Source: an uncultured bacterium (GTDB taxonomy: Bacteria; Fidelibacterota; Marinisomatia; Marinisomatales; JABMOV01). From it: a stretch of DNA of 64,000 nucleotides. The DNA lies in contig CAZZIU010000010.1 of the NCBI GenBank assembly GCA_964654545.1, forward strand, positions 14,037 to 78,036, written 5' to 3'. Under the pieces are notes generated by a model, which was not told the DNA's origin, did no database searches, and was given only the letters and a program-made list of their open reading frames with translations. A program made the position numbers and the translations under genes. Positions within the stretch are counted from its first letter, which is position 1. Each line of letters starts with the position of its first letter. Below, one piece after another: positions 3,873-58,285 of this stretch.

Positions 3873-6104
3873 ATGAGTATGTTCGCCGAAATTGCATTTC
3901 CAATATCCAGCTATCAAACGTTTACATATAGCATACCAGATGAAATGCAGGTACTGATGGATATTGGTGTCCGAGTTAAAGCACCCCTTGGTAAACGCAT
4001 CGCTCAGGGTGTTGTCGTTTCCATAAGCACCAACTCCTCCTATGCTGGAACGATAAAACCAATCAAATCTCTGGTGGATAGCCAGCGCATTTTGGATCAG
4101 CATTTATGGAAATTGATTCAATGGATTAGTAAATACTACCTTACTCCCATTGGTCAGGTTGCAAGAACCATCTTGCCAAATAAGCTCTCCACTAATTATG
4201 AGCCACGCGGACAATGGATGGTCGAAGCAATTTCCACCGTACCCGATTGGTCAATTCTTCGTAATGCACCGACACAATCCTTGATGTTTAAAACAATCCT
4301 TGAATTCAAGGAACCGGTACCTGTAGCAAAATTGGGAAATCTGGCCAGCAGTCCCCTTACAGCTTGCCGGGCACTGTCAGACAAAAAACTTGTGAAAATC
4401 TGGCAGAAAATTATTCCACCAGATACAACCGGATTCACGTTTAAAGCGCTACACAAAACACTCCGGTTTTCGGAATCACAGAAGCAGGTGCTGGACAAAC
4501 TTTATAATGCGTTAAAGACAAATACGTTTGCACCATACCTGTTGCACGGTGTAACGGGAAGCGGAAAGACTGAAATATATATTTCAACCGCGCAGCAGGC
4601 ACTCAAGCAAGGGAAATCGGTCATAGTGTTATTACCGGAAATTGCACTTACACCACAAATAGGAGGTCGTTTCAGATCCGCATTTGGGGATCGGGTTGGA
4701 CTGTGGCACTCAAAGATGAGCCCGGCTCTTCGTGCATGGACATGGAAACGAATATGTTCTGGCGACTTCCAGGTAATTGTTGGAGCCCGAAGTGCAATTT
4801 TTGCCCCAATGAAAAATCTTGGATTGATTATTGTTGACGAGGAACAGGAAAGCACATATAAGCAAGATGCACCAGCTCCGCGATACCACGCCAGGGATGT
4901 GGCACTCGTTAGGGCCCAATTCCAAAACGCTATTATCATCCTTGCAAGTGCAACCCCAAGCCTTGAGAGTTTTTACAACCAGACACAGCAAAAAATTTCC
5001 TACCTGAATCTACCTGACCGCTACGGAGGAGCGGTTTATCCATATGTCCATCTGGTAGACATGAAAAAAGAGCAGGAAGAATCAGGAAAAGGCGGACAGA
5101 TTTTTAGCGGATTGCTTCTGGAAAAAATTGAGGATCGGCTGCATAAAGAGGAACAGATTATCATTTTGCATAATCGTCGTGGCTATGCACCTGTTATGCA
5201 CTGTTTTTCCTGTGGCGATGTGGTAATGTGTCCGCATTGTAAAATTGCACTAACCTACCATAAAACACATCGGGGTCTGCAGTGTCATTTTTGTGGTTAC
5301 CACACGGTTCATTTACCACAAGATTGTCCAACTTGTCATAGTGATCGATTGCAATTATCAGGTTTGGGAACACAAAGAATTGAGGAATTGCTTGATCGAT
5401 CTTTTCCGGAAGCAAAGATTGTACGCCTGGATCAGGATACGGCGACTTCAGTTCAAAACGTTACGAAGTTGCTTGAGAAATTTGCGGAGGGTGATGGAGA
5501 CATTTTACTGGGTACCCAAATGATAGCCAAAGGTCTGGATTTCGAAAAGGTCACGCTTGCCGGTATTGTGAATGCCGATACCGGATTGTATTTGCCGGAC
5601 TTTAGAGCATCGGAACGGATCTTCCAGCTGATTTATCAGACCGCCGGAAGAACAGGACGCAGGTCCATTCAGGGAGAGGTTGTAATTCAGAGTTACAACC
5701 CAGAAAATCCAGTTATAAAGCATGCTGCACAACTCCATGTAAAAAACTATTATAACATCGCTTTAAGCGATAGACAGGAACTAAATTATCCGCCGTTTAG
5801 TTGGATGGTTAAATTAGAATTTTCTGGCAATCGACAGGAAAAAGTAATATCAGCCGCTGAGGAGATCAGAAAAGCGCTTAACATCAAAAGAAAAGGATTG
5901 GATGTTTTAGGTCCGGCCAATTGTTATAGAGAAAAATTGCGAAACAAATACAGAATGCAAATTGTAATCAAATCCTCCAAGAAAACAGATCCTAATGGTT
6001 CCTATTTGCGGTCCGTAGTTGAAAAAATGATCCCAGATATTAGTCGCGCGAAAAACAGCGGTGTAGCTATCGCAATAGATGTGGATCCAGTTAGCCTGCT
6101 CTGA
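3873..6104 (+). CDS. priA: Primosomal protein N' (helicase)
   Basis: LHGVTGSGKTE, IVDEEQE, ASATPSLES, two CxxC pairs of zinc knuckles, LLGTQMIAKGLDF. Confidence 0.96.
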   Translation: MSMFAEIAFPISSYQTFTYSIPDEMQVLMDIGVRVKAPLGKRIAQGVVVSISTNSSYAGTIKPIKSLVDSQRILDQHLWKLIQWISKYYLTPIGQVARTILPNKLSTNYEPRGQWMVEAISTVPDWSILRNAPTQSLMFKTILEFKEPVPVAKLGNLASSPLTACRALSDKKLVKIWQKIIPPDTTGFTFKALHKTLRFSESQKQVLDKLYNALKTNTFAPYLLHGVTGSGKTEIYISTAQQALKQGKSVIVLLPEIALTPQIGGRFRSAFGDRVGLWHSKMSPALRAWTWKRICSGDFQVIVGARSAIFAPMKNLGLIIVDEEQESTYKQDAPAPRYHARDVALVRAQFQNAIIILASATPSLESFYNQTQQKISYLNLPDRYGGAVYPYVHLVDMKKEQEESGKGGQIFSGLLLEKIEDRLHKEEQIIILHNRRGYAPVMHCFSCGDVVMCPHCKIALTYHKTHRGLQCHFCGYHTVHLPQDCPTCHSDRLQLSGLGTQRIEELLDRSFPEAKIVRLDQDTATSVQNVTKLLEKFAEGDGDILLGTQMIAKGLDFEKVTLAGIVNADTGLYLPDFRASERIFQLIYQTAGRTGRRSIQGEVVIQSYNPENPVIKHAAQLHVKNYYNIALSDRQELNYPPFSWMVKLEFSGNRQEKVISAAEEIRKALNIKRKGLDVLGPANCYREKLRNKYRMQIVIKSSKKTDPNGSYLRSVVEKMIPDISRAKNSGVAIAIDVDPVSLL

Positions 6105-48536: not shown

Positions 48537-49259
48537 TTACCCTGTGAGTGTCTTGGTTTTGATAAAGGCGTCCAGATATATTTCAACCCGCCTGTTTTTC
48601 GCCCGAGCTTCCTGAAGGTCAATAGGGTTCATACCAACTTCGTTCATGGAGATTACAGGACGAAATTCACCGTATCCCATGGCGGAAAATTTTTCTTCAG
48701 GTATTTGCGAATATTCACTTAAAAGTTTAACAATATTCAGAGCTCTGGCTGTTGATAAATCCCAGTTGGATTCAAATCTTGCAGATGTGGGTAGAGCCAA
48801 ATCATCTGTATGCCCCTCACATCGAATCTCCACATTCAGATACCCACCCCGTTTTTTAATAGCGTCCAGCAAGTTGCGGTACCGCGGATCATCATCGACG
48901 TTTAGAACCTTTGACACACGGATAATGCTACCGATTTGGCGTAAGAGAGGGTGGACTATTTGACGGACATCCGCTTCCATGGAGCCGAATAATTCACCAC
49001 TTGCCATGGTAATCTTTACGCCCTTTGTGACGCGCTGCACTGACACGTAGGAAGATTCGATATCCTGTAGCTCTTCGTATGTTTCATCCAATAGCATATT
49101 GATGACACGGTCGATATGTTTTTCCGCGTCATTTAATATGACAAGTAAGAGAATAAAGAAGGTTAATAATAAAGTAACTAAATCAGCATAGGTGACAGCC
49201 CAAGCCGTGCTTTTGGCCTTCGCTTCCGAGACGGAAACGCCGTATTTTCTTCCAGCCAC
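48537..49259 (-). CDS. motB: Stator B subunit (MotB/PomB/MotS type) with OmpA-like peptidoglycan-binding domain
   Basis: GTG start; WAVTYADLVTLLLTFFILL, EGHTDD, SNWDLSTARA, GYGEFRP, NRRVEI. Confidence 0.88.
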   Translation of the reverse strand: MAGRKYGVSVSEAKAKSTAWAVTYADLVTLLLTFFILLLVILNDAEKHIDRVINMLLDETYEELQDIESSYVSVQRVTKGVKITMASGELFGSMEADVRQIVHPLLRQIGSIIRVSKVLNVDDDPRYRNLLDAIKKRGGYLNVEIRCEGHTDDLALPTSARFESNWDLSTARALNIVKLLSEYSQIPEEKFSAMGYGEFRPVISMNEVGMNPIDLQEARAKNRRVEIYLDAFIKTKTLTG

Positions 49260-49262
49260 GGA

Positions 49263-50081
49263 TTATTCTCTCTTGCGACGCATGCTGGCAGGAACGAAGG
49301 TCATTAATTTCTCGCGAATCAGAATCGGATGTTCTTTAGCATGAATGCTTATAATTCCTTCAACCATAATGGTTTTAAGCATTAATTCATCTTCAGATTT
49401 TCGCTTTAATTTTCCTCCAATAGGAAGAAAGACCAGGTTGGAAAACAATACGCCGTAGAAGGTGGTTACCAGTGCCAGACCCATACCGCCCAAAAGTTCG
49501 GCAAATTTTGCCGCCACGTCAAAGTCAATTGAATCGACAGAACCGCCATTTCCGCCGGAAAATTTATTCATCATGACGATCAAGCCCATCACAGTTCCCA
49601 GCATCCCAAATGCAGGTGCATAGGCGCCCATGTAAAAAAAGATTTCCTGGCCGATGTTATGCCGCCGTTCTATGTTGCTTAGTTCAAGATTGAGAAAAGT
49701 TCGCAGCCGGCCCGCATCCCGTTCATTTATTGCCAGTTCGATACCGCTGCGTAAAAATTTATTATCAATTTTTTCCAGATCCGCTTCCAGTGACATGATC
49801 CCCGATTTTCTGGCTTTTTCAGCCTTTTCAACAAGGGTGTCGATCTCTTTTGAATAACTGTGACTCTCGTAAATGAAAGCGTTTTTTAAAATACCAAAGA
49901 TACCAAGAACATTCCGCAGGGGGTAATTAACAATGGTTGCAGCCAATGTTCCACCAAATACTACCAGAATAGAGTTCAGGTTGAAAAACCAATAAAGATC
50001 ACCATGTCCTCGAATAACCCCAACCGCAATTATACCTAAACCTGCCAATAAACCTAGAGCGGTTCCAAAATCCATAACCAA
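49263..50081 (-). CDS. motA: Stator A subunit (MotA/PomA/MotP type)
   Basis: VFGGTLAAT, ARKSGIMSLE, YAPAFGMLGTVMGL, ALVTTFYG, EHPILIREKL. Confidence 0.88.
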   Translation of the reverse strand: MVMDFGTALGLLAGLGIIAVGVIRGHGDLYWFFNLNSILVVFGGTLAATIVNYPLRNVLGIFGILKNAFIYESHSYSKEIDTLVEKAEKARKSGIMSLEADLEKIDNKFLRSGIELAINERDAGRLRTFLNLELSNIERRHNIGQEIFFYMGAYAPAFGMLGTVMGLIVMMNKFSGGNGGSVDSIDFDVAAKFAELLGGMGLALVTTFYGVLFSNLVFLPIGGKLKRKSEDELMLKTIMVEGIISIHAKEHPILIREKLMTFVPASMRRKRE

Positions 50082-50156: not shown

Positions 50157-51425
50157 ATGGCAAAATTTACTACTTTGGATGATCGACTTACCTATCTCTA
50201 TGCTCTCGAAAGAAAAGGTATAAAGGTGGGTTTAAAGCATACTGAGGATTTGCTGGCTCGGTGCGGTAATCCACACCATGAATTTCCCAGTATTCATATT
50301 GCCGGCACCAACGGAAAAGGATCAACGGCGGCGGTAGTCCATGCGATTTTGGTAGAATCGGGCTACAAAGTAGGATTATATACGTCGCCCCATCTGGTTC
50401 AATTCAATGAGCGTGTTCGGATCAATGGTAAACCGATTTCAGATGAAGATATCGTTCAGTTTGTTGATCGATATAATCAGGATTTTGATGCGATAAATTC
50501 AACATTTTTTGAAACAACCACTGCACTCGCATTTTGGTATTTTGCGAAACAGAAAGTAGATGTCGCAGTGATTGAAACAGGCTTGGGCGGTCGTCTGGAT
50601 TCCACCAATGTACTTGTTCCTGAAATTACTGTAATTACGCCAATTGATTTAGACCATGGGCACATATTGGGCAATACAATACTGGAAATTGCTAAAGAAA
50701 AGGCAGGCATTATTAAACCTTCCATACCGCTGATACTCGCCCCACAACCCATCGCAGCAAAAGATGTAATTGAAAAGGTCGCGCATGAAAAAAATGCACG
50801 CTTGTACAATCCTGACCCACCTTACGATATTAAAATTTCTGCAATCGGCACCCAATTCAAATGGCATACCGATTTGTTTAATTTGCCTCTAATTGGTTTT
50901 CATCAGGCCACTAATACCGTTTTAGGAATGCAAACGGCAATGGTATTTGATAGTTCAATTTCCATTGACAAAATTCAGAGTGGACTAAGAAACATTCGTT
51001 GGCCAGGACGATTACAAATTGTTGGGGAAGACCCAATGTTTATGTACGATGTTGCACATAATGGACACGGGTTAAACAGTCTTCTGCAATCGCTAAAACA
51101 TTTTAGTAATAAAAGACCGGTTGGCATAATGGCGCTAAAAGAAGACAAGGAAATCTCTGGTATAGCATCTCTATTGAAGAATCAGTTTAGCACCCTGATG
51201 GTAACAACCGAACCCAACATGGGTTTAATGGAAACGAAAGAACTTAAACGCACATTGGAGAAACACAATGTTATTTGTGAGGAGTCAAAAAGCATCAGGG
51301 ATGCGGTGCGCAAAGCCAAAGATTTATTGGAAGAAAGCCAAATGGGATTAATTTTTGGCAGCCACTATATTGGAAAAGCAGTTTTTGAAGTATTTGATTT
51401 TTCCTTTGACACAGGAGCGATTTGA
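50157..51425 (+). CDS. folC: Folylpolyglutamate synthase/dihydrofolate synthase
   Basis: HIAGTNGKGST, YTSPHL, ETGLGGRLDSTNV, WPGRL, DVAHN. Confidence 0.96.
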   Translation: MAKFTTLDDRLTYLYALERKGIKVGLKHTEDLLARCGNPHHEFPSIHIAGTNGKGSTAAVVHAILVESGYKVGLYTSPHLVQFNERVRINGKPISDEDIVQFVDRYNQDFDAINSTFFETTTALAFWYFAKQKVDVAVIETGLGGRLDSTNVLVPEITVITPIDLDHGHILGNTILEIAKEKAGIIKPSIPLILAPQPIAAKDVIEKVAHEKNARLYNPDPPYDIKISAIGTQFKWHTDLFNLPLIGFHQATNTVLGMQTAMVFDSSISIDKIQSGLRNIRWPGRLQIVGEDPMFMYDVAHNGHGLNSLLQSLKHFSNKRPVGIMALKEDKEISGIASLLKNQFSTLMVTTEPNMGLMETKELKRTLEKHNVICEESKSIRDAVRKAKDLLEESQMGLIFGSHYIGKAVFEVFDFSFDTGAI

Positions 51426-51433
51426 TGTAATTT
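51406..51433 (+). promoter_or_regulatory. Possible sigma70 promoter for rho
   Basis: TTGACA, 16-nt spacer, TAATTT, ~90 nt upstream of rho. Confidence 0.35.
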
Positions 51434-51520
51434 AACTCTTCGGATATTTATTCTCATCGAAGGTTTTTTCGTTTAGTACGCAATCCCCCACAAGCATAAG
51501 TAAACCACAAGGTTTGTAAA

Positions 51521-52768
51521 ATGGATATTAATGAACTACAAGCCCAGAAAATCAAGGATTTAACTAAAGTTGCGCAGGAACTTGAAATCCAGGGTTTTTC
51601 AGGCCTTAACAAACAAGAACTAATTGTAAAAATTCTCCAGGCACATGCTGAGAAGCAAGGCTCCCTTTATGCCAGAGGCACATTGGAAGTATTAAATGAT
51701 GGCTATGGGTTTTTACGCAGCGCAGATTTTAATTATTTACCTGGACCGGACGATATTTATGTCAGTCCTTCTCAGATTAAGCGGTTTGGTCTGCGCACCG
51801 GGCATCGCGTCGCCGGTCAAATACGACCCCCAAAATCCAAAGAGCGATTTTACGCACTTTTAAAAGTTGATTTGGTGAATGAACGTCCTCCGGCGGATGT
51901 TAGACAAGCGATTTTATTTGAAAACCTAACCCCCGCTTTCCCGGAAGAAAAATTTAATCTGGAAGGCGATATGAAAAACATGTCCATGCGTATAATGGAT
52001 TTGTTTTCTCCTGTTGGAAAAGGCCAAAGAGCGCTTATTGTGGCTCAACCCAAAACGGGGAAAACGGTATTATTGCAGAAAATGGCAAATACCATTCGCC
52101 AGAATCATCCGGACACAAAAATGATGATTCTGTTGATTGATGAGCGTCCGGAAGAAGTAACGGACATGAAACGCAACGTAGACGCGGAAGTTGTCTCTTC
52201 AACATTTGATGAGGCCCCCGAACGCCATGTAGCCGTCGCCGACATGGTGCTACAAAGAGCAAAACGCATGGTGGAATATGGCGAAGATGTGGTGATTCTA
52301 TTGGATAGTATTACACGATTGGCACGCGCCCACAATGCCGTAATTCCTCATAGCGGTAAAATATTATCAGGTGGTGTTGATACCAATGCACTAAAGAAAC
52401 CAAAACAGTTTTTTGGAGCCGCTAGAAATATTGAGGAAGGTGGAAGCCTGACAATTATAGCCACTGCCCTTATTGACACCGGTAGTCGCATGGATGACGT
52501 AATTTTTGAAGAGTTTAAGGGCACCGGAAATCTCGAATTAGTTTTAGATCGTCGGCTAAGCGACAGAAGAATATATCCATCCTTCGATATAATACGGTCA
52601 GGAACACGGCGAGAAGAACTGTTGTTGTCCAAGAAAACGCTTGGAAGATTGTGGATCTTGCGGAAACTCCTCAACGAGATGAACGTAATTGAAGCAATGG
52701 AATTTTTACAAGAACGAATGAAGAGGACAAAATCTAACGAAGAATTTTTAGATAATATGAGTGGTTAA
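51521..52768 (+). CDS. rho: Transcription termination factor Rho
   Basis: [47 protein letters not shown]. Confidence 0.98.
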
Positions 52769-52813
52769 TACCACATCTTAGCAAGATAGTTAGCATATTA
52801 GTGAGGTATAGAA

Positions 52814-53764
52814 ATGGAAGATGAAAGAATAATAGTACCGTCTGTCACGGTCAAACTGGTTACGGATAAGCCAGTAAAGAAAACTCCCTACCAGGTAAAA
52901 GGAGTGTTCATGAAGCATTTTCCCGATGAAGAAATCGTACCAATGTTGGACGGCAGGTATCGGGAAAAATTTCTTTATCCGCGGGTTCAGGTGAAAATAT
53001 TAAATGAACAAATTTATATCCTGGGTTTGAATGAAGGCGTTGATCCAGTTTTATCATTAGTAGAAAAATTTGATTTTCTGGATTTTGGGAATATTACATT
53101 TCAGGTTCTTGGTGCCGATGTAGACAAATATGACAATCGCTTTCGCCCAACAAATCGGTTGATTCGTTACCGGTTTATAACACCCTGGGTAGCCCTGAAT
53201 CAGATCACCGGGAGCCGCTATCGGTTTTTGAATAATGCAGAACGAGCCGTTTTCCTCAATCGTTTACTTGGACAAAATATTGTATTCCTGGCGCGCGAGA
53301 TGGGAATGGATATTGAAAAGAAGATTTATACCAAAACGTCGCTCACGTCTCTTTTCCCAAAACCGGTGGATGAGCACAATTGGGGTGCTTTTACAGGTGA
53401 ATTCAGAACCAATTTTATATTGCCAAACTATATCGGTGTTGGAAACGGAATTACCCGTGGTTATGGTACAATCTATGGTTTATTCAATCCGGAAATGTTC
53501 CAATTCGATGAGGGTAATGTTGAGCCGGAAGAACTGGAAGATGCAGGCGTTGAAGAAATATCAAGCGATGACACTGAGTTGGAGGCGGTGGATGTAGCCG
53601 ATGTGCCTCAGCCGCGAAAACGGAGACCGGCAGAAAAAAAACCTGGTCGTGGACGTCGTAAAGTTCTATCAGAGGAATTTGATATTGAAGAGGATGAGGA
53701 AGAAATAGGCGAAGACGATCGTTTCAATCGGCCCGAGTTTCATAAAAAACAGCATGATCTGTAG
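52814..53764 (+). CDS. Stand-alone Cas6b-like RAMP protein with charged C-terminal tail
   Basis: YPRVQVK, YRFITPWVALN, FTGEFRTNFILPNYIGVGNGITRGYGTI (G-rich loop); ~90-aa acidic/basic tail. Confidence 0.8.
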   Translation: MEDERIIVPSVTVKLVTDKPVKKTPYQVKGVFMKHFPDEEIVPMLDGRYREKFLYPRVQVKILNEQIYILGLNEGVDPVLSLVEKFDFLDFGNITFQVLGADVDKYDNRFRPTNRLIRYRFITPWVALNQITGSRYRFLNNAERAVFLNRLLGQNIVFLAREMGMDIEKKIYTKTSLTSLFPKPVDEHNWGAFTGEFRTNFILPNYIGVGNGITRGYGTIYGLFNPEMFQFDEGNVEPEELEDAGVEEISSDDTELEAVDVADVPQPRKRRPAEKKPGRGRRKVLSEEFDIEEDEEEIGEDDRFNRPEFHKKQHDL

Positions 53765-53769
53765 ATTGC

Positions 53770-54966
53770 ATGTCATCCATTACATTAGCTGACAGAGTTC
53801 ACAAGGTAAAACCCTCCTTTACTCTGGAGATGGCAGGGAAAGCTGCCGCTCTGCGCGAGGCAGGGAAAGATGTGATCAATTTTAGTGTTGGTGAACCGGA
53901 CTTTAACACACCGGAGAATATCCGGCAGGCAGGTCATGATGCTATAGAAAATGGGTTTACCAAATACACCGCTGGCGCCGGTATGATGGAATTACGAAGA
54001 GCAATATGCGGTAAACTGAAACGTGAAAATGATATGGAATTTTCACCGTCACAGGTCCTTGTCTCCAACGGTGAAAAACAGAGTCTTTACTTGGCGTGCC
54101 AGGCCCTTTTTCAGGAGGGCGATGAAGTGATTGTGTTTTCACCCTACTGGGTTTCATTTCCTGAATTTGTAAGTTTGGCAGACGCAACACCAATCTTTGT
54201 AAATACAGTAGCGAAAAAGCAGTTTGAACCGGACTGGAATGACTTGGAAAATAAAATTACGAACCGGACGAAGGGTGTAATTTTTAATTCCCCGTCTAAC
54301 CCAACCGGCGGAGTATGGTCAAATGAAGCTGTTACCCAATTGCTGGCATTAGCATCAAAGCATAATTGGGTGGTGATTTCTGATGAATGTTATGAGCGGC
54401 TGGTATTTGACACGAAGTTTGTAAGCGCTGAAAAGTTAAACGCAGTTGGCGCAAATATTATCACCTGCATGAGTTTGTCAAAAACATATGCCATGACCGG
54501 CTGGCGGATCGGATATGCCGCCGGAGATGAAACGGTGATAAAGGCCATGACTAAAATTCAAGGACAGGCTACCTCCTGTGCCAATGCCATTGGACAAAAA
54601 GCGGCCATAGAAGCACTGAATGGCGATCAATCTGCTGTGGAAGAAATGCGGCAAACGTTTATGGAACGACGGGATTTAATTGTTGGTCTGTTAAATGACA
54701 TACCGGGTATTCACTGCGGATTACCCGGTGGAGCATTTTATGCCTTCCCGGATTTTACCGCATATATGGGAAAGACATATAATGAACGCCTCATAAAAGA
54801 TTCGTTCGGAATGTCAGATTATCTCCTGGAAATGGCGAAAGTGGTCACAGTCCCAGGCGATGGATTTGGTGCAAAGGGACACATTCGGTTTTCCTTTGCG
54901 ATCGGCAAACATCAAATACGCGATGGAATCCAGCGTGTAAAAAAAGTTTTAGAACAATTAGTATAG
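53770..54966 (+). CDS. PLP-dependent aminotransferase class I (aspartate aminotransferase-like)
   Basis: GEPDF, NSPSNPTG, SDECY, SLSKTYAMTGWRIGY. Confidence 0.93.
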   Translation: MSSITLADRVHKVKPSFTLEMAGKAAALREAGKDVINFSVGEPDFNTPENIRQAGHDAIENGFTKYTAGAGMMELRRAICGKLKRENDMEFSPSQVLVSNGEKQSLYLACQALFQEGDEVIVFSPYWVSFPEFVSLADATPIFVNTVAKKQFEPDWNDLENKITNRTKGVIFNSPSNPTGGVWSNEAVTQLLALASKHNWVVISDECYERLVFDTKFVSAEKLNAVGANIITCMSLSKTYAMTGWRIGYAAGDETVIKAMTKIQGQATSCANAIGQKAAIEALNGDQSAVEEMRQTFMERRDLIVGLLNDIPGIHCGLPGGAFYAFPDFTAYMGKTYNERLIKDSFGMSDYLLEMAKVVTVPGDGFGAKGHIRFSFAIGKHQIRDGIQRVKKVLEQLV

Positions 54967-54980
54967 AATAGGAGTAAAGG

Positions 54981-55181
54981 ATGAAACAAGATATCCATCC
55001 TGATTATCAACTTGGAACCGTGCATTGCGTTTGCGGGAATACATTTCAGGTGTACAGCACACTGGGCGACCAACGTGTTGAAATCTGCAACCAGTGCCAT
55101 CCCTTTTTTACCGGGAAACAAAAATTGATTGATACGGCCGGACGTATTGAACAATTCAAAAAGAAATACGGTAAAAAGTAA
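54981..55181 (+). CDS. rpmE: 50S ribosomal protein L31 (Zn-binding type)
   Basis: [29 protein letters not shown]. Confidence 0.97.
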
Positions 55182-55236: not shown

Positions 55237-56205
55237 ATGAAAAAAATCATACAACTACTGGTAGCAAAACCATCGATTCTTGTTGGCGGACAAGCTGTAA
55301 TCGAAGGTGTCATGATGCGCGTCCCCGGGGCATATGCAACGGCTGTGCGTACTCCTTCTGGTGAAATTCAGGTTGATCGGCATAAATTTGTGTCCAGGAC
55401 GGAGACATCAAGATTTTGGAAAAAACCGGTCCTGCGAGGGGTAATGGGGTTGTTTGAAGCCATGCGGATTGGCTTTCGCACACTACAATGGTCCGCGGAT
55501 ATCGCTATGCCGGAAGAAAAGGATTCTAATCCAAAAGGTTCAAACGTTGGAAATTTCTTCTCAACATTGTTTGCTGTGGGATTAGCCATCTCTTTGTTCA
55601 TGGTATTGCCGTATGTGCTAACAACCTATGTTTTTCATCTTGAAAAGGCAGCCCTTTCGTTTAACCTGGTCGCAGGAGGAATGCGTATAACCTTTTTTGT
55701 TATTTATCTTATGTTAATTTCCTTAATGAAAGATGTTAAGCGTCTGTTCAAAAATCATGGTGCGGAACACAAAGTGGTATACAATTTTGAATCAGGCAGA
55801 TCGATAACAGTAGAAAATGCCCAGAGCTTTCCAACACAACATCCGCGATGCGGAACCAGCTTTATGTTTATTGTCCTGATAATTGCAATTCTGGCATTCG
55901 CACTGGTGGATACTGTCGCTATTGCTTTGATAGGTCAATTGTCGATTCCTCTGAGATTGTTTATACATTTGCCCTTGATCCCTCTGGTTGCCGGAATATC
56001 CTATGAAGGAATTAAGATTACATCTAGACATGGTGATAAAGCGCTGTTTCGCGCGTTACGTGCACCAGGTCTATGGTTACAAAACATTACCACAAAACAG
56101 CCTGACGATGACATGGTTGAAGTTGCTATAACTGCGCTCCGTGAAGCTTTTGGTGAAAAAATAAACGAATACGAAGGTAAGTCCTTTACCGCTGAAGCTG
56201 TCTGA
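55237..56205 (+). CDS. DUF1385 (YqhQ-like) membrane protein
   Basis: [37 protein letters not shown]. Confidence 0.92.
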
Positions 56206-57272
56206 TGGAAGAAAAACTAAAACAAATTATCGAACGCTACACCAATCTAGCAGAAATGATGGCTGATCCCGTTATCCTCTCAGACCAAAATAAATTGCGT
56301 GAAACCGCACAAGAGCACAGCCATCTGGAACCCATTGTTCGGTGTGCAAAAAACTATCTGGATGTAACAAATCGTATTAATGAAGACAAATCGGTTTTGG
56401 ACGGAGATGATGCTGAATTAAAAGAACTGGTTCAAGAAGAAATCCCCGAGCTGGAAGAAGAACAACAATCGCTGGAAGAAGAATTAAAAGTTCTGATGCT
56501 ACCCAAAGACCCGAACGATGATAAAAATACAATAGTAGAAATCCGGGCCGGTACGGGTGGCGACGAAGCGGCCCTCTTTGCCGGAGATTTATTTCGAATG
56601 TATACCCGCTTTGCTGAGCGCTCTGGGTTGCAATCTGAAGTAATGGATATGAACGATACTGGTATCGGTGGGGTTAAAGAAGTAATATTTTCTGTAAAGG
56701 GCCGAGGTGTATATGGTTTGATGAAGTTTGAAAGCGGCGTTCACCGAGTGCAACGTGTGCCGAAGACAGAAGCAGGAGGCCGGGTACATACGTCCGCCGC
56801 AACAGTAGCGGTCTTGCCGGAGGCGGAAGAAGCGGATATCGAAATCAATGAAAACGATCTGAAAATTGATACGTATAGGTCCAGTGGTGCTGGTGGCCAG
56901 CATGTAAATAAAACAGAATCCGCAATTCGTATCACCCACCTCCCCACAGGATTGGTGGTAACCTGCCAGGATGAAAAATCACAGCATAAAAACCGCGCCG
57001 CCGCCATGAAAGTTTTGCGATCACGATTGCTTGCACAAGAACAGGAACGTCTAGCCTCAGAACGGGCTGAAGTGAGAAAACTACAGGTAAGCACGGGAGA
57101 TCGATCGGCCAAAATTCGTACCTATAATTTCCCCCAGGGGCGAGTGACTGATCATCGCATTAATCTCACACTCTATCAATTGGAAGCCATTTTGGATGGC
57201 GATTTGGCAGAAATAATTGAACGATTGCGTTTGGCGGACCAGCAGGAGCGACTGGCTGCTATAGGAGAATAA
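56205..57272 (+). CDS. prfA: Peptide chain release factor 1
   Basis: [11 protein letters not shown] (PxT) recognition loop, [23 protein letters not shown]. Confidence 0.98.
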
Positions 57273-57409
57273 TGCATTTCTAAGCGACCAATCGAAGATT
57301 CGTCTTGATATTATTTATACCCTATAATTCCCGGCCCTGTTAAATCAGAAATTTTCACTCTAATTCTTAATTATTAAAACAACAGAAACTCCTAAATTGA
57401 ATGGTTGTC

Positions 57410-58285
57410 ATGACCACCAACACAAAAACCTGGCGTATTATTGATATGATTAAATGGGCGACATCCTATTTAGGTGAACGGAATTTTATCCGTCCACGAC
57501 GAGATATTGAATGGTTATTGCAAGATGTGCTGCAGTGCTCACGTGTTGATTTGTATCTTCGTTTCGATGAACCATTGAGTCGCTCTCAGCTGGATACGTT
57601 GAGAATGCTTGTCAAACGGCGTATTACTAATGAACCGGTGCAGTATATTATTGGGAAGACCGATTTTTACGGATTAGAATTTGTAATAAACAATTCTGTA
57701 TTGATTCCCAGGCCAGAAACAGAGCGACTGGTTGATGTTGCATTGCATACATTATCTACTATGGCGCAACCTACTATTCTTGATATTGGTACCGGTTCAG
57801 GGTGCATAGCCATAGCCCTGGCCCATGAAATCCCAGAAGCGCAAATCACTGCCGTAGATATATCCGATGAGATATTAGCATTGGCTAAAACCAATGCGCA
57901 AAACCATAGCATTGAAAATGTATCGCTTATAAAAATGGATTTTTTGCATCAGGCTTCAGAAAATAGATTTGATATGATTGTGTGTAACCCGCCGTATGTG
58001 CCACTTGCAGAAATGAATTCTATCATGCCCGATGTCAGACACTTTGAACCTGAAATTTCATTAACAGATGGCAAGGATGGTTTAACCTTTTATCGGCGCC
58101 TTGCTGAAATTGGCCCAACCATCGTAAATCATGGTGGATGGATGATCATGGAGGTTGGCCTGGAAGACCACCCGGAAAAGGCAAAAGCCATTTTTAGTCG
58201 CCATCCATTTGGTGACATTGAACTCATACCCGACTACAATGGTGACCCCCGTGTTCTTAAAGTGAAGGTGACAAACAATGACTAA
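57410..58285 (+). CDS. prmC: Release factor glutamine methyltransferase
   Basis: EPVQYIIG, VLIPRPETE, LDIGTGSG, NPPY. Start uncertain (57401 or 57410). Confidence 0.95.
   Translation: MTTNTKTWRIIDMIKWATSYLGERNFIRPRRDIEWLLQDVLQCSRVDLYLRFDEPLSRSQLDTLRMLVKRRITNEPVQYIIGKTDFYGLEFVINNSVLIPRPETERLVDVALHTLSTMAQPTILDIGTGSGCIAIALAHEIPEAQITAVDISDEILALAKTNAQNHSIENVSLIKMDFLHQASENRFDMIVCNPPYVPLAEMNSIMPDVRHFEPEISLTDGKDGLTFYRRLAEIGPTIVNHGGWMIMEVGLEDHPEKAKAIFSRHPFGDIELIPDYNGDPRVLKVKVTNND

Follow-up and report, generated by a model that had tools for sequence, protein, structure and literature searches.

Why should a gene that resembles a CRISPR endonuclease stand directly behind rho, in a cluster of core gene-expression genes? 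The question is raised by a 64,000-nucleotide stretch of contig CAZZIU010000010.1 (the window), from an uncultured bacterium of the phylum Fidelibacterota, in which a cas6b-like open reading frame (ORF) follows the gene for the transcription terminator Rho. Genes for Cas proteins are, by the textbook, fast-evolving and horizontally shuffled defence genes. We conclude that this one is a domesticated descendant of cas6b that is no longer a component of a CRISPR-Cas system. That conclusion is much more secure than the mechanism we propose for a partnership with Rho, namely that the gene encodes a non-cleaving RNA-binding protein made with Rho and acting with Rho, a proposal that we consider evenly poised between right and wrong.

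Family, fold and active site

The original prediction had assigned the protein to Cas6b from motifs that run the length of the fold, and all of these are present in the ORF (VKGVFMKHFPDEEIV, YPRVQVK, FITPWVALN and FTGEFRTNFILPNYIGVGNGITRGYGT). Profile searches agree with this assignment. Pfam Cas6b_N matches residues 11-99 at 40.7 bits (cutoff 25) and Cas6b_C matches residues 113-220 of the 316-aa protein at 88.6 bits (cutoff 39.4), and the PADLOC models for Cas6 and Cas6b are matched end to end (2.3e-42 and 1.6e-40); no NCBIfam model matches the protein. A phmmer search of PDB sequences finds Methanococcus maripaludis (Mm) Cas6b (4Z7K/4Z7L) at E = 4.6e-27 over residues 27-221. Using an alignment of 77 homologues, we built an AlphaFold2 (AF2) model that replaced one from a less diverse alignment (mean predicted local distance difference test score, pLDDT, of 60) and that reaches a pLDDT of 81-95 over residues 10-225. 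Foldseek aligns this model with 4Z7K_A at E = 4.9e-17, with a template-modelling (TM) score of 0.80 and a root-mean-square deviation of 3.5 A, and the next ~27 matches are all Cas6-family enzymes. A match to Cas6, one of the repeat-associated mysterious proteins (RAMPs), is thus found both by hidden Markov model and by structure. In the databases, relatives in the same clade are named either 'hypothetical' or 'CRISPR-associated endonuclease Cas6'.

In Mm Cas6b, H38 and H40 are interchangeable catalytic histidines, such that the double mutant is mostly cleavage-deficient (Richter et al. 2012, PMC3479195), and a Y47A substitution lowers cleavage (PMC3479195). We compared these positions in an alignment of full-length representatives of 50%-identity clusters, taken from an exhaustive HMMER search (834 clusters at E <= 1e-3). 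The two catalytic columns hold histidine in 96% and 95% of 75 classical Cas6b representatives, and in 0/20 representatives of the clade to which the window protein belongs. In the window protein, P43 and L45 fall at these columns in some alignments and a gap in others, and F53 is its equivalent of Mm Y47. The alignments contain no conserved histidine anywhere in the Cas6b-fold domain of the clade. Other residues that typify the classical enzymes are replaced as well: Mm R24 (99% of classical representatives) by K or other residues, N128 (100%) by T or others, K181 (95%) by D or others, and K/R206 (87%) by N. G47 and F158, meanwhile, are signature residues of the clade.

Much of the remaining framework is common to both groups, including Y55, P56, Q59, K61, Y119, F121, P124, W125, L128, N129, N155, F193, G195, F197, N200, P204 and the loop glycines G208, G210, G216 and G218. 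Each glycine of this loop is 85-95% conserved in the rho-linked clade, and mutations of their counterparts severely impair Haloferax Cas6b in vivo (PMC6546412). The RNA-contact residues of the window protein were deduced from conservation alone. Judging from the fold and the glycine loop, RNA binding has most likely been retained; judging from the missing histidines and the other replaced residues, cleavage has probably been lost. Because the active-site residues are gone, we speak of a protein that probably only binds, in place of one that binds and cuts.

Absence of CRISPR arrays and cas genes from the locus had been part of the original prediction, and every scan that we ran of the window agrees. 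Tandem Repeats Finder (TRF) and a direct-repeat search found no CRISPR array in the 64 kb, Rfam had no match there, and PADLOC found no Cas1, 2, 4, 5, 7 or 8 and no other RAMP among the 59 other window ORFs. A k-mer scan (at least 3 copies, 40-110 nt apart) of the window and 80 related loci, of ~17 kb each and 1.25 Mb in total, likewise turned up no array, and the same 1.25 Mb of flanks hold no cas genes. Among the called neighbours of more divergent loci that we traced, there were no RAMP or cas matches. As a control, we ran TRF on a Runella plasmid that carries a classical Cas6, and it readily detected the adjacent array of 37-nt repeats; the Cas6 gene there (LHNH at the active site) lies inside a full type I-B operon next to the array. 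A second control with the classical H-x-H (P0162) is the last gene of a cas10-csm2-5-csm6 (type III-A) operon. The Runella rosea plasmid (L175, 11941-14409) carries a complete type I-B locus, and the 37-nt repeats of its long array end in ATTGAAAC.

One candidate in the window was set aside. A 743-aa helicase (3873-6104, + strand) matches Cas3, Cas3b and type IV DinG models at ~25 bits over ~60 aa, which is generic P-loop similarity and not a cas gene. The other PADLOC matches among the 59 ORFs are to single members of systems: PDC-S07 (3e-32), a type II nicking endonuclease model (6e-32), mad2/mad3/mad8, AriA and several methyltransferase models.

Linkage to rho, ancestry and conservation

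We scanned one genome per GTDB species and found 217 genomes with a relative of the gene; the best 80 of these 217, all Fidelibacterota, provide the species-locus counts. In 80/80, rho is immediately 5' and co-oriented. The gene folC lies further upstream in nearly all of them, and an aminotransferase lies downstream and co-oriented in most, being inverted, displaced or missing in about ten. We also traced seven divergent members of the clade (P0137, P0145, P0147, P0155, P0156, P0160 and P0182; 219-264 aa, 28-40% identical to the window protein), and these too directly follow rho in 7/7 cases (13 loci). A profile search with the distant rho-linked forms yielded 13 proteins. Altogether, each of the 99 loci with the gene has rho immediately before it in the same orientation. 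Measured over 94 loci, the median gap between the end of rho and the start of the cas6b-like gene is 52 nt; most loci have 12-67 nt, and the most divergent lineages only 12-13 nt. Genes <= 55 nt apart are commonly assigned to one operon (PMC11347177).

The other neighbours are less constant. The aminotransferase is missing from distant lineages, and two divergent lineages share nothing but the rho pair, one with the order pyrBI - rho - cas6b-like - lspA and the other with carotenoid synthase - rho - cas6b-like - ubiA - dnaE. At loci with reshuffled flanks (L081-83, L087-89), rho stays while rpmE, prfA, prmC and aspC are gone. Thus, of the order rho-cas6-aspC-rpmE, whose conservation across the phylum the original prediction had proposed to test, the link to rho survives (80/80, 7/7 and, from the Rho-anchored test below, 5/5), while aspC and rpmE can be dispensed with, as can prfA and prmC. 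It is with rho alone, and not with the whole operon, that the association is conserved, and the gene is uniformly present across the phylum at a fixed position, not patchily distributed. The strongest support for the linkage is the persistence of the rho pair through flank rearrangements, and not the number of loci. In one deep-branching Fidelibacterota locus (L081, 8933-12906), about nine small ORFs of 90-160 aa, two with META domains, come after a short cas6b-like gene in the same orientation; this run stands in for the aspC-rpmE block, which is ~7 kb further on.

The linkage was also examined from the side of Rho. Where Rho is at least 75% identical to that of the window and the downstream sequence is readable, the gene directly follows rho in 4/4 loci. 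It is present at one further locus with a 68% identical Rho (L099; Cas6b_C at 80.6 bits), which makes 5/5 Fidelibacterota-type metagenome loci with Rho 68-82% identical. In other lineages, the gene follows rho in 0/64 loci with Rho 61-68% identical and at least 900 nt of downstream sequence; the next gene there is rpmE, an aminotransferase, mgsA, a HEPN/nucleotidyltransferase pair, a glyoxalase or others. At one such locus, in a non-Fidelibacterota metagenome contig (L107, 3095-3818), what comes directly after rho is a minimal nucleotidyltransferase/HEPN pair, which resembles a toxin-antitoxin module. A further lineage that lacks the cas6b-like gene (L111, 2128-3300) has a class I/II aminotransferase right behind rho, so a rho-aspC adjacency exists independently of the Cas6b-like insertion.

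In a neighbour-joining tree of 97 representatives (capped Poisson distances; distance-based only), the window protein, the 7 context-checked divergent relatives and 12 others form one clade of 20 with bootstrap support of 252/300 (84%). All 20 members of this clade lack the histidines, and outside it only 2 sequences do, one of them truncated and the other a degenerate classical form (P0189). The latter falls among the classical proteins in the tree with LPQR in place of H-x-H, and may represent an independent loss of the active site. The named clade members are all annotated as Candidatus Marinimicrobia, Neomarinimicrobiota, Fidelibacterota or an FCB-group metagenome-assembled genome. Fidelibacterota is the valid name for Marine Group A/SAR406/Marinimicrobia, from which there is one isolate, Fidelibacter multiformis (PMC11652737). 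Carriage by phages or plasmids was considered and rejected: there are no relatives among 50,697 phage records, and the only three plasmid relatives are distant (26-29%) classical Cas6 genes of Bacteroidota. As judged from its sequences, the rho-linked family has a single origin, and the best explanation for its distribution is that the gene is a vertically inherited core gene of Fidelibacterota.

We next consider how fast the gene evolves. Over the 80 species, the median identity to the orthologue in the window is 79% for rho (78 loci), 71% for the Cas6b-like domain, 69% for prfA, 66% for aspC, 64% for DUF1385, 49% for prmC, 48% for folC and 45% for ubiA. Against the three closest genomes, the nonsynonymous proportion (pN) is 0.025-0.055 in the domain and 0.12-0.24 in the C-terminal tail, and the synonymous proportion (pS) is saturated at 0.80-0.86. 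As synonymous sites are saturated even against the nearest genomes, we give pN and pS instead of dN/dS. The cas6b-like domain is under strong purifying selection, stronger than that on several translation genes. Collectively, the fixed position, the single origin, the loss of H-x-H, the housekeeping-level conservation and the lack of nearby arrays or cas genes strongly support the earlier suggestion of a domesticated RAMP with a housekeeping role and not one in defence.

The locus, the rho leader and the C-terminal tail

The position given earlier for the gene, 45 nt past the rho stop and 5 nt ahead of the aminotransferase start, agrees with the coordinates, and rpmE, prfA and prmC do lie on the same strand, as Pfam matches and ORF coordinates show (Table 1). 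DUF1385, prfA and prmC (55237-58285) make up the remainder of the co-oriented gene-expression cluster. By Pfam, the window Rho is of canonical length without an insertion domain. No terminator-like site was seen in the window between rho and the cas6b-like gene; this and the short spacer lead us to infer that the two are co-transcribed. Just 5' of folC lies a MotA/MotB-like pair (48537-50081, - strand) that matches the ZorB model of the Zorya system, which we ascribe to generic MotB similarity.

Table 1. Coordinates of the rho-cas6b-like locus and of the parts of the cas6b-like gene (positions in the window)
Feature	Position	Strand	Description
folC-like ligase	50157-51425		Upstream of rho
Putative rho promoter and leader	51400-51520	+	TTGACA-17-TAATTT pair inside 3' end of folC
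rho	51521-52768	+	415 aa; Pfam Rho_N, Rho_RNA_bind, ATP-synt_ab
rho to cas6b-like spacer	52769-52813	+	45 nt; GAGGT Shine-Dalgarno-like element
cas6b-like ORF	52814-53764	+	ATG start; 316 aa plus stop
Cas6b-fold domain, residues 1-225	52814-53488	+	Two ferredoxin-like/RNA recognition motif (RRM) halves; Pfam, AF2, Foldseek
P43-M44-L45	52940-52948	+	Replaces classical catalytic H38-N39-H40; alignments
Glycine-rich loop G208-V-G210-N-G-I-T-R-G216-Y-G218	53435-53467	+	Kept in rho-linked clade and classical Cas6b
Charged linker, predicted disordered, residues 226-303	53489-53722	+	Contains LExVxVxDVPxP and KVLSEEFDIEE motifs
Extreme C-terminal motif FNRPEFHKKQHDL, residues 304-316	53723-53761	+	
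Class I/II aminotransferase (aspC-like)	53770-54966	+	Pfam; start 5 nt after cas6b-like gene
rpmE (L31)	54981-55181	+	66 aa
DUF1385	55237-56205	+	Pfam
prfA	56205-57272	+	Pfam
prmC	57401-58285	+	Pfam

The columns of the promoter-like pair are conserved in an alignment of 21 loci. After this pair, the rho leader of the window contains a hairpin (CTCTTCGG...CGAAGG), a T-run and a CCCCC tract. Most lineages likewise have a hairpin at this place in the leader, though its sequence differs, and the C-tract recurs. The leader may be an autoregulatory attenuator or a Rho utilization (rut) element, which we offer as a lead only. In the spacer between rho and the cas6b-like gene, the only recurring feature is the Shine-Dalgarno-like GAGGT.

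About 90 C-terminal residues of the window protein fall outside the Cas6b fold. Classical Cas6b proteins and the short members of the clade end shortly past the glycine loop; the marine long forms (300-365 aa) carry 94-140 extra residues, of which about 40% are K, E, D or R. This extension is predicted to be disordered, with AF2 pLDDT mostly below 50. Within it are conserved islands: among 120 long-form representatives, LExVxVxDVPxP occurs in 114 and KVLSEEFDIEE in 102, and 115 end in the terminal motif ...FNxxE[YF]HKKQHxL, whose N, E and both H are 97-100% conserved. The terminal motif occurs once in the six-frame translation of the window. Its H310 and H314, one helical turn apart, are invariant in the long-form alignment. 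The anatomy of the tail is likely that of a disordered segment carrying short docking motifs.

Proposed role and rival explanations

Our proposal that the protein is synthesized in step with Rho stems from the fact that rho is its sole invariant neighbour, with gaps of 12-67 nt at most loci and no terminator seen in the window; the partnership itself we infer from the conserved gene order. In this proposal, the Cas6b-derived domain would bind specific RNA without cutting it, and the protein would act as an RNA-recognition adaptor or modulator, determining at which sites, or whether at all, Rho loads on transcripts. Among its targets may be the rho leader. In the long forms, the tail with its FNxxE[YF]HKKQHxL ending would be a likely docking element for Rho, RNA polymerase or the ribosome. 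A bolder version, which we put forward tentatively and rather doubt, is that a RAMP was captured once, early in Fidelibacterota, and turned into a specificity subunit of Rho, with a domain that reads RNA as Cas6 reads repeats and so recruits or blocks Rho. The long forms would then act through the C-terminal HKKQH docking peptide and the charged tail.

Several points weigh against a non-cleaving partner of Rho. We found no shared RNA motif in the rho leader or the spacer, and the leader hairpins differ in sequence between lineages. As the catalytic residues of Cas6 enzymes vary, loss of the histidines does not prove inactivity. The tail is not essential to the ancestral function, since the short forms lack it. 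Moreover, 80/80 loci are not 80 independent observations, because adjacency within one phylum amounts to a single evolutionary event. Finally, the negative results for arrays and cas genes cover the window and flanks (1.25 Mb) only, which leaves some room for an ordinary Cas6b that serves arrays or effectors elsewhere in the genome. Cas6 genes are able to act in trans, and NCBI names some members of the clade 'CRISPR-associated endonuclease Cas6'. Nevertheless, we find an ordinary Cas6b scarcely credible, and already largely refuted: the catalytic pair is lost in every clade member, the gene is fixed after rho in 99/99 loci that have it, it is conserved like a housekeeping gene where the classical controls are variable, there are no arrays or cas genes in those flanks, and the clade is monophyletic and vertically inherited.

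Could the protein still be an endoribonuclease, one whose substrate is not CRISPR RNA (crRNA) but some housekeeping RNA, for instance a stable RNA or the mRNA of the rho operon? It would have to cut with non-histidine residues or, in the long forms, with the HKKQH histidines folding back. Cas6 catalysis does rest on varied residue sets (PMC6546412), and some Cas6 enzymes have atypical active sites (PMC3652601); Y55, K61, Y119 and N155 are conserved in the clade and in classical Cas6b, and H310 and H314 are the only conserved histidines of the long forms. We nonetheless think this unlikely, as the protein has lost not only H38/H40 but also its counterparts of R24, N128, K181 and K/R206, the Y47 equivalent varies between F and Y, the short forms keep the rho linkage without any tail histidines, and the C-terminal helix has low confidence in the AF2 model, with no docking predicted. 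A related doubt concerns RNA binding itself. Several of the replaced residues (R24, K181, K/R206 and N128) have given way in part to acidic or neutral ones, and endogenous Rho regulators such as Rof work by protein contact (PMC12360218), as might be expected if the protein were a pure protein-protein partner, scaffold or inhibitor, a Rof/Psu-like Rho regulator on a Cas6 shell. The near-invariance in the clade of the glycine-rich loop, a hallmark RNA-contacting element of Cas6 and RAMP proteins, and the abundance of Lys and Arg in the tails make this highly improbable in our judgement. It is distinctly unlikely, too, that the protein binds RNA for a purpose unrelated to Rho, in ribosome or translation-factor biology or in mRNA stability, and was kept after rho by operon inertia. 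In its favour, most marine lineages have the gene in a cluster with rpmE, prfA and prmC, the linkage arose in one evolutionary event, and other phyla have rpmE directly after rho, which means that the cluster existed before the gene entered it. However, rho is kept when the flanks reshuffle, and the spacer is down to 12-13 nt in the most divergent lineages, which is the pattern expected of functionally coupled genes.

A Cas6 that is linked to rho, or one from Fidelibacterota, is unmentioned in reviews of CRISPR exaptation and evolution (PMC8730458, PMC6452270, PMC3150331), in a survey of Rho diversity (PMC11347177) and in a comprehensive 2025 Rho review that lists protein regulators (PMC12360218), and full-text searches aimed at such a protein brought up no description either. 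The rho-linked Cas6b-like protein thus appears to be undescribed, with the proviso that literature coverage is incomplete; for the literature covered, the novelty appears to lie in a Cas6-family protein in an unprecedented non-CRISPR housekeeping context. A cas6b descendant that is inherited vertically, tied to rho across an abundant ocean phylum and better conserved than the gene for release factor 1 would plainly exemplify how core gene expression can recruit an RNA-recognition module from an immune system. One practical consequence is that 'CRISPR-associated endonuclease Cas6' in Fidelibacterota genomes is a mis-annotation that should not count as evidence of CRISPR-Cas. If the protein is a partner of Rho, it would be a new kind of termination cofactor and would point to a way in which a general terminator can be given sequence specificity. 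The specificity-subunit version, if true, would mean sequence-addressed factor-dependent termination in Fidelibacterota. It would also make this protein the first solo Cas6 to be exapted for housekeeping, and Rho would have a cofactor of a new class. The family further offers a way to test how transcription is controlled in a phylum that has only one cultured member, and might provide a tool in the form of a naturally cleavage-dead, high-affinity RNA-binding scaffold.

How does the protein compare with known systems? Its closest counterpart, Mm Cas6b (PF17955 Cas6b_N and PF17262 Cas6b_C), has the same two-domain ferredoxin/RRM fold at 27% identity, with the core motifs YPxxQxK and TPWxxLN and the G-rich loop GxGxxxxxGxG in common. 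The two differ in that Mm Cas6b has H38/H40, R24, N128, K181 and K/R206, all of which the rho-linked protein lacks, and in that the long forms have a charged tail of 94-140 aa with a conserved terminal motif where Mm Cas6b has none. Unlike Mm Cas6b, the rho-linked protein is encoded outside any cas operon, with no array nearby, and is fixed downstream of rho; its rate of evolution is as low as that of housekeeping genes, whereas the classical Cas6b controls are variable and embedded in operons. Among the Foldseek matches, at 13-15% identity, are 3QJJ ('One RAMP protein binding different RNA substrates') and 3UFC ('Cas6-related gene'). We take these to be Pyrococcus Cas6 homologues that bind RNA, namely CRISPR repeats, without a canonical active site, in archaea that bear CRISPR. 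Those proteins are archaeal, whereas the rho-linked family is bacterial and has no CRISPR context in its flanks.

Among known Rho regulators, we are aware of none whose gene has a fixed place in the rho operon throughout a phylum. With the known regulators, NusG, Rof/YaeO, phage P4 Psu, Hfq and YihE, the window protein would share a proposed role only: there is no relation in sequence or fold, as its only Pfam matches are to Cas6b domains and its PDB matches are to Cas6. Rof and Hfq are, like it, proteins with an RNA-binding fold, and they contact Rho (PMC12360218, PMC11718236). In Bacteroides thetaiotaomicron, a disordered insertion in Rho tunes termination through condensates (PMC13269538, PMC10284900, PMC11347177). 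Speculatively, Fidelibacterota may offer an analogy within the FCB group, where the charged disorder is found not within Rho but on the adjacent Cas6b-like protein. Other derivatives of CRISPR systems have been exapted for roles beyond adaptive immunity, among them type IV systems, CRISPR-associated transposons (CASTs), the Streptomyces I-E/STAND module and haloarchaeal HRAMP (PMC8730458). These are multi-gene effectors, mostly based on guide RNA and tied to mobile elements or defence, whereas the rho-linked gene is solitary and lies in a housekeeping operon.

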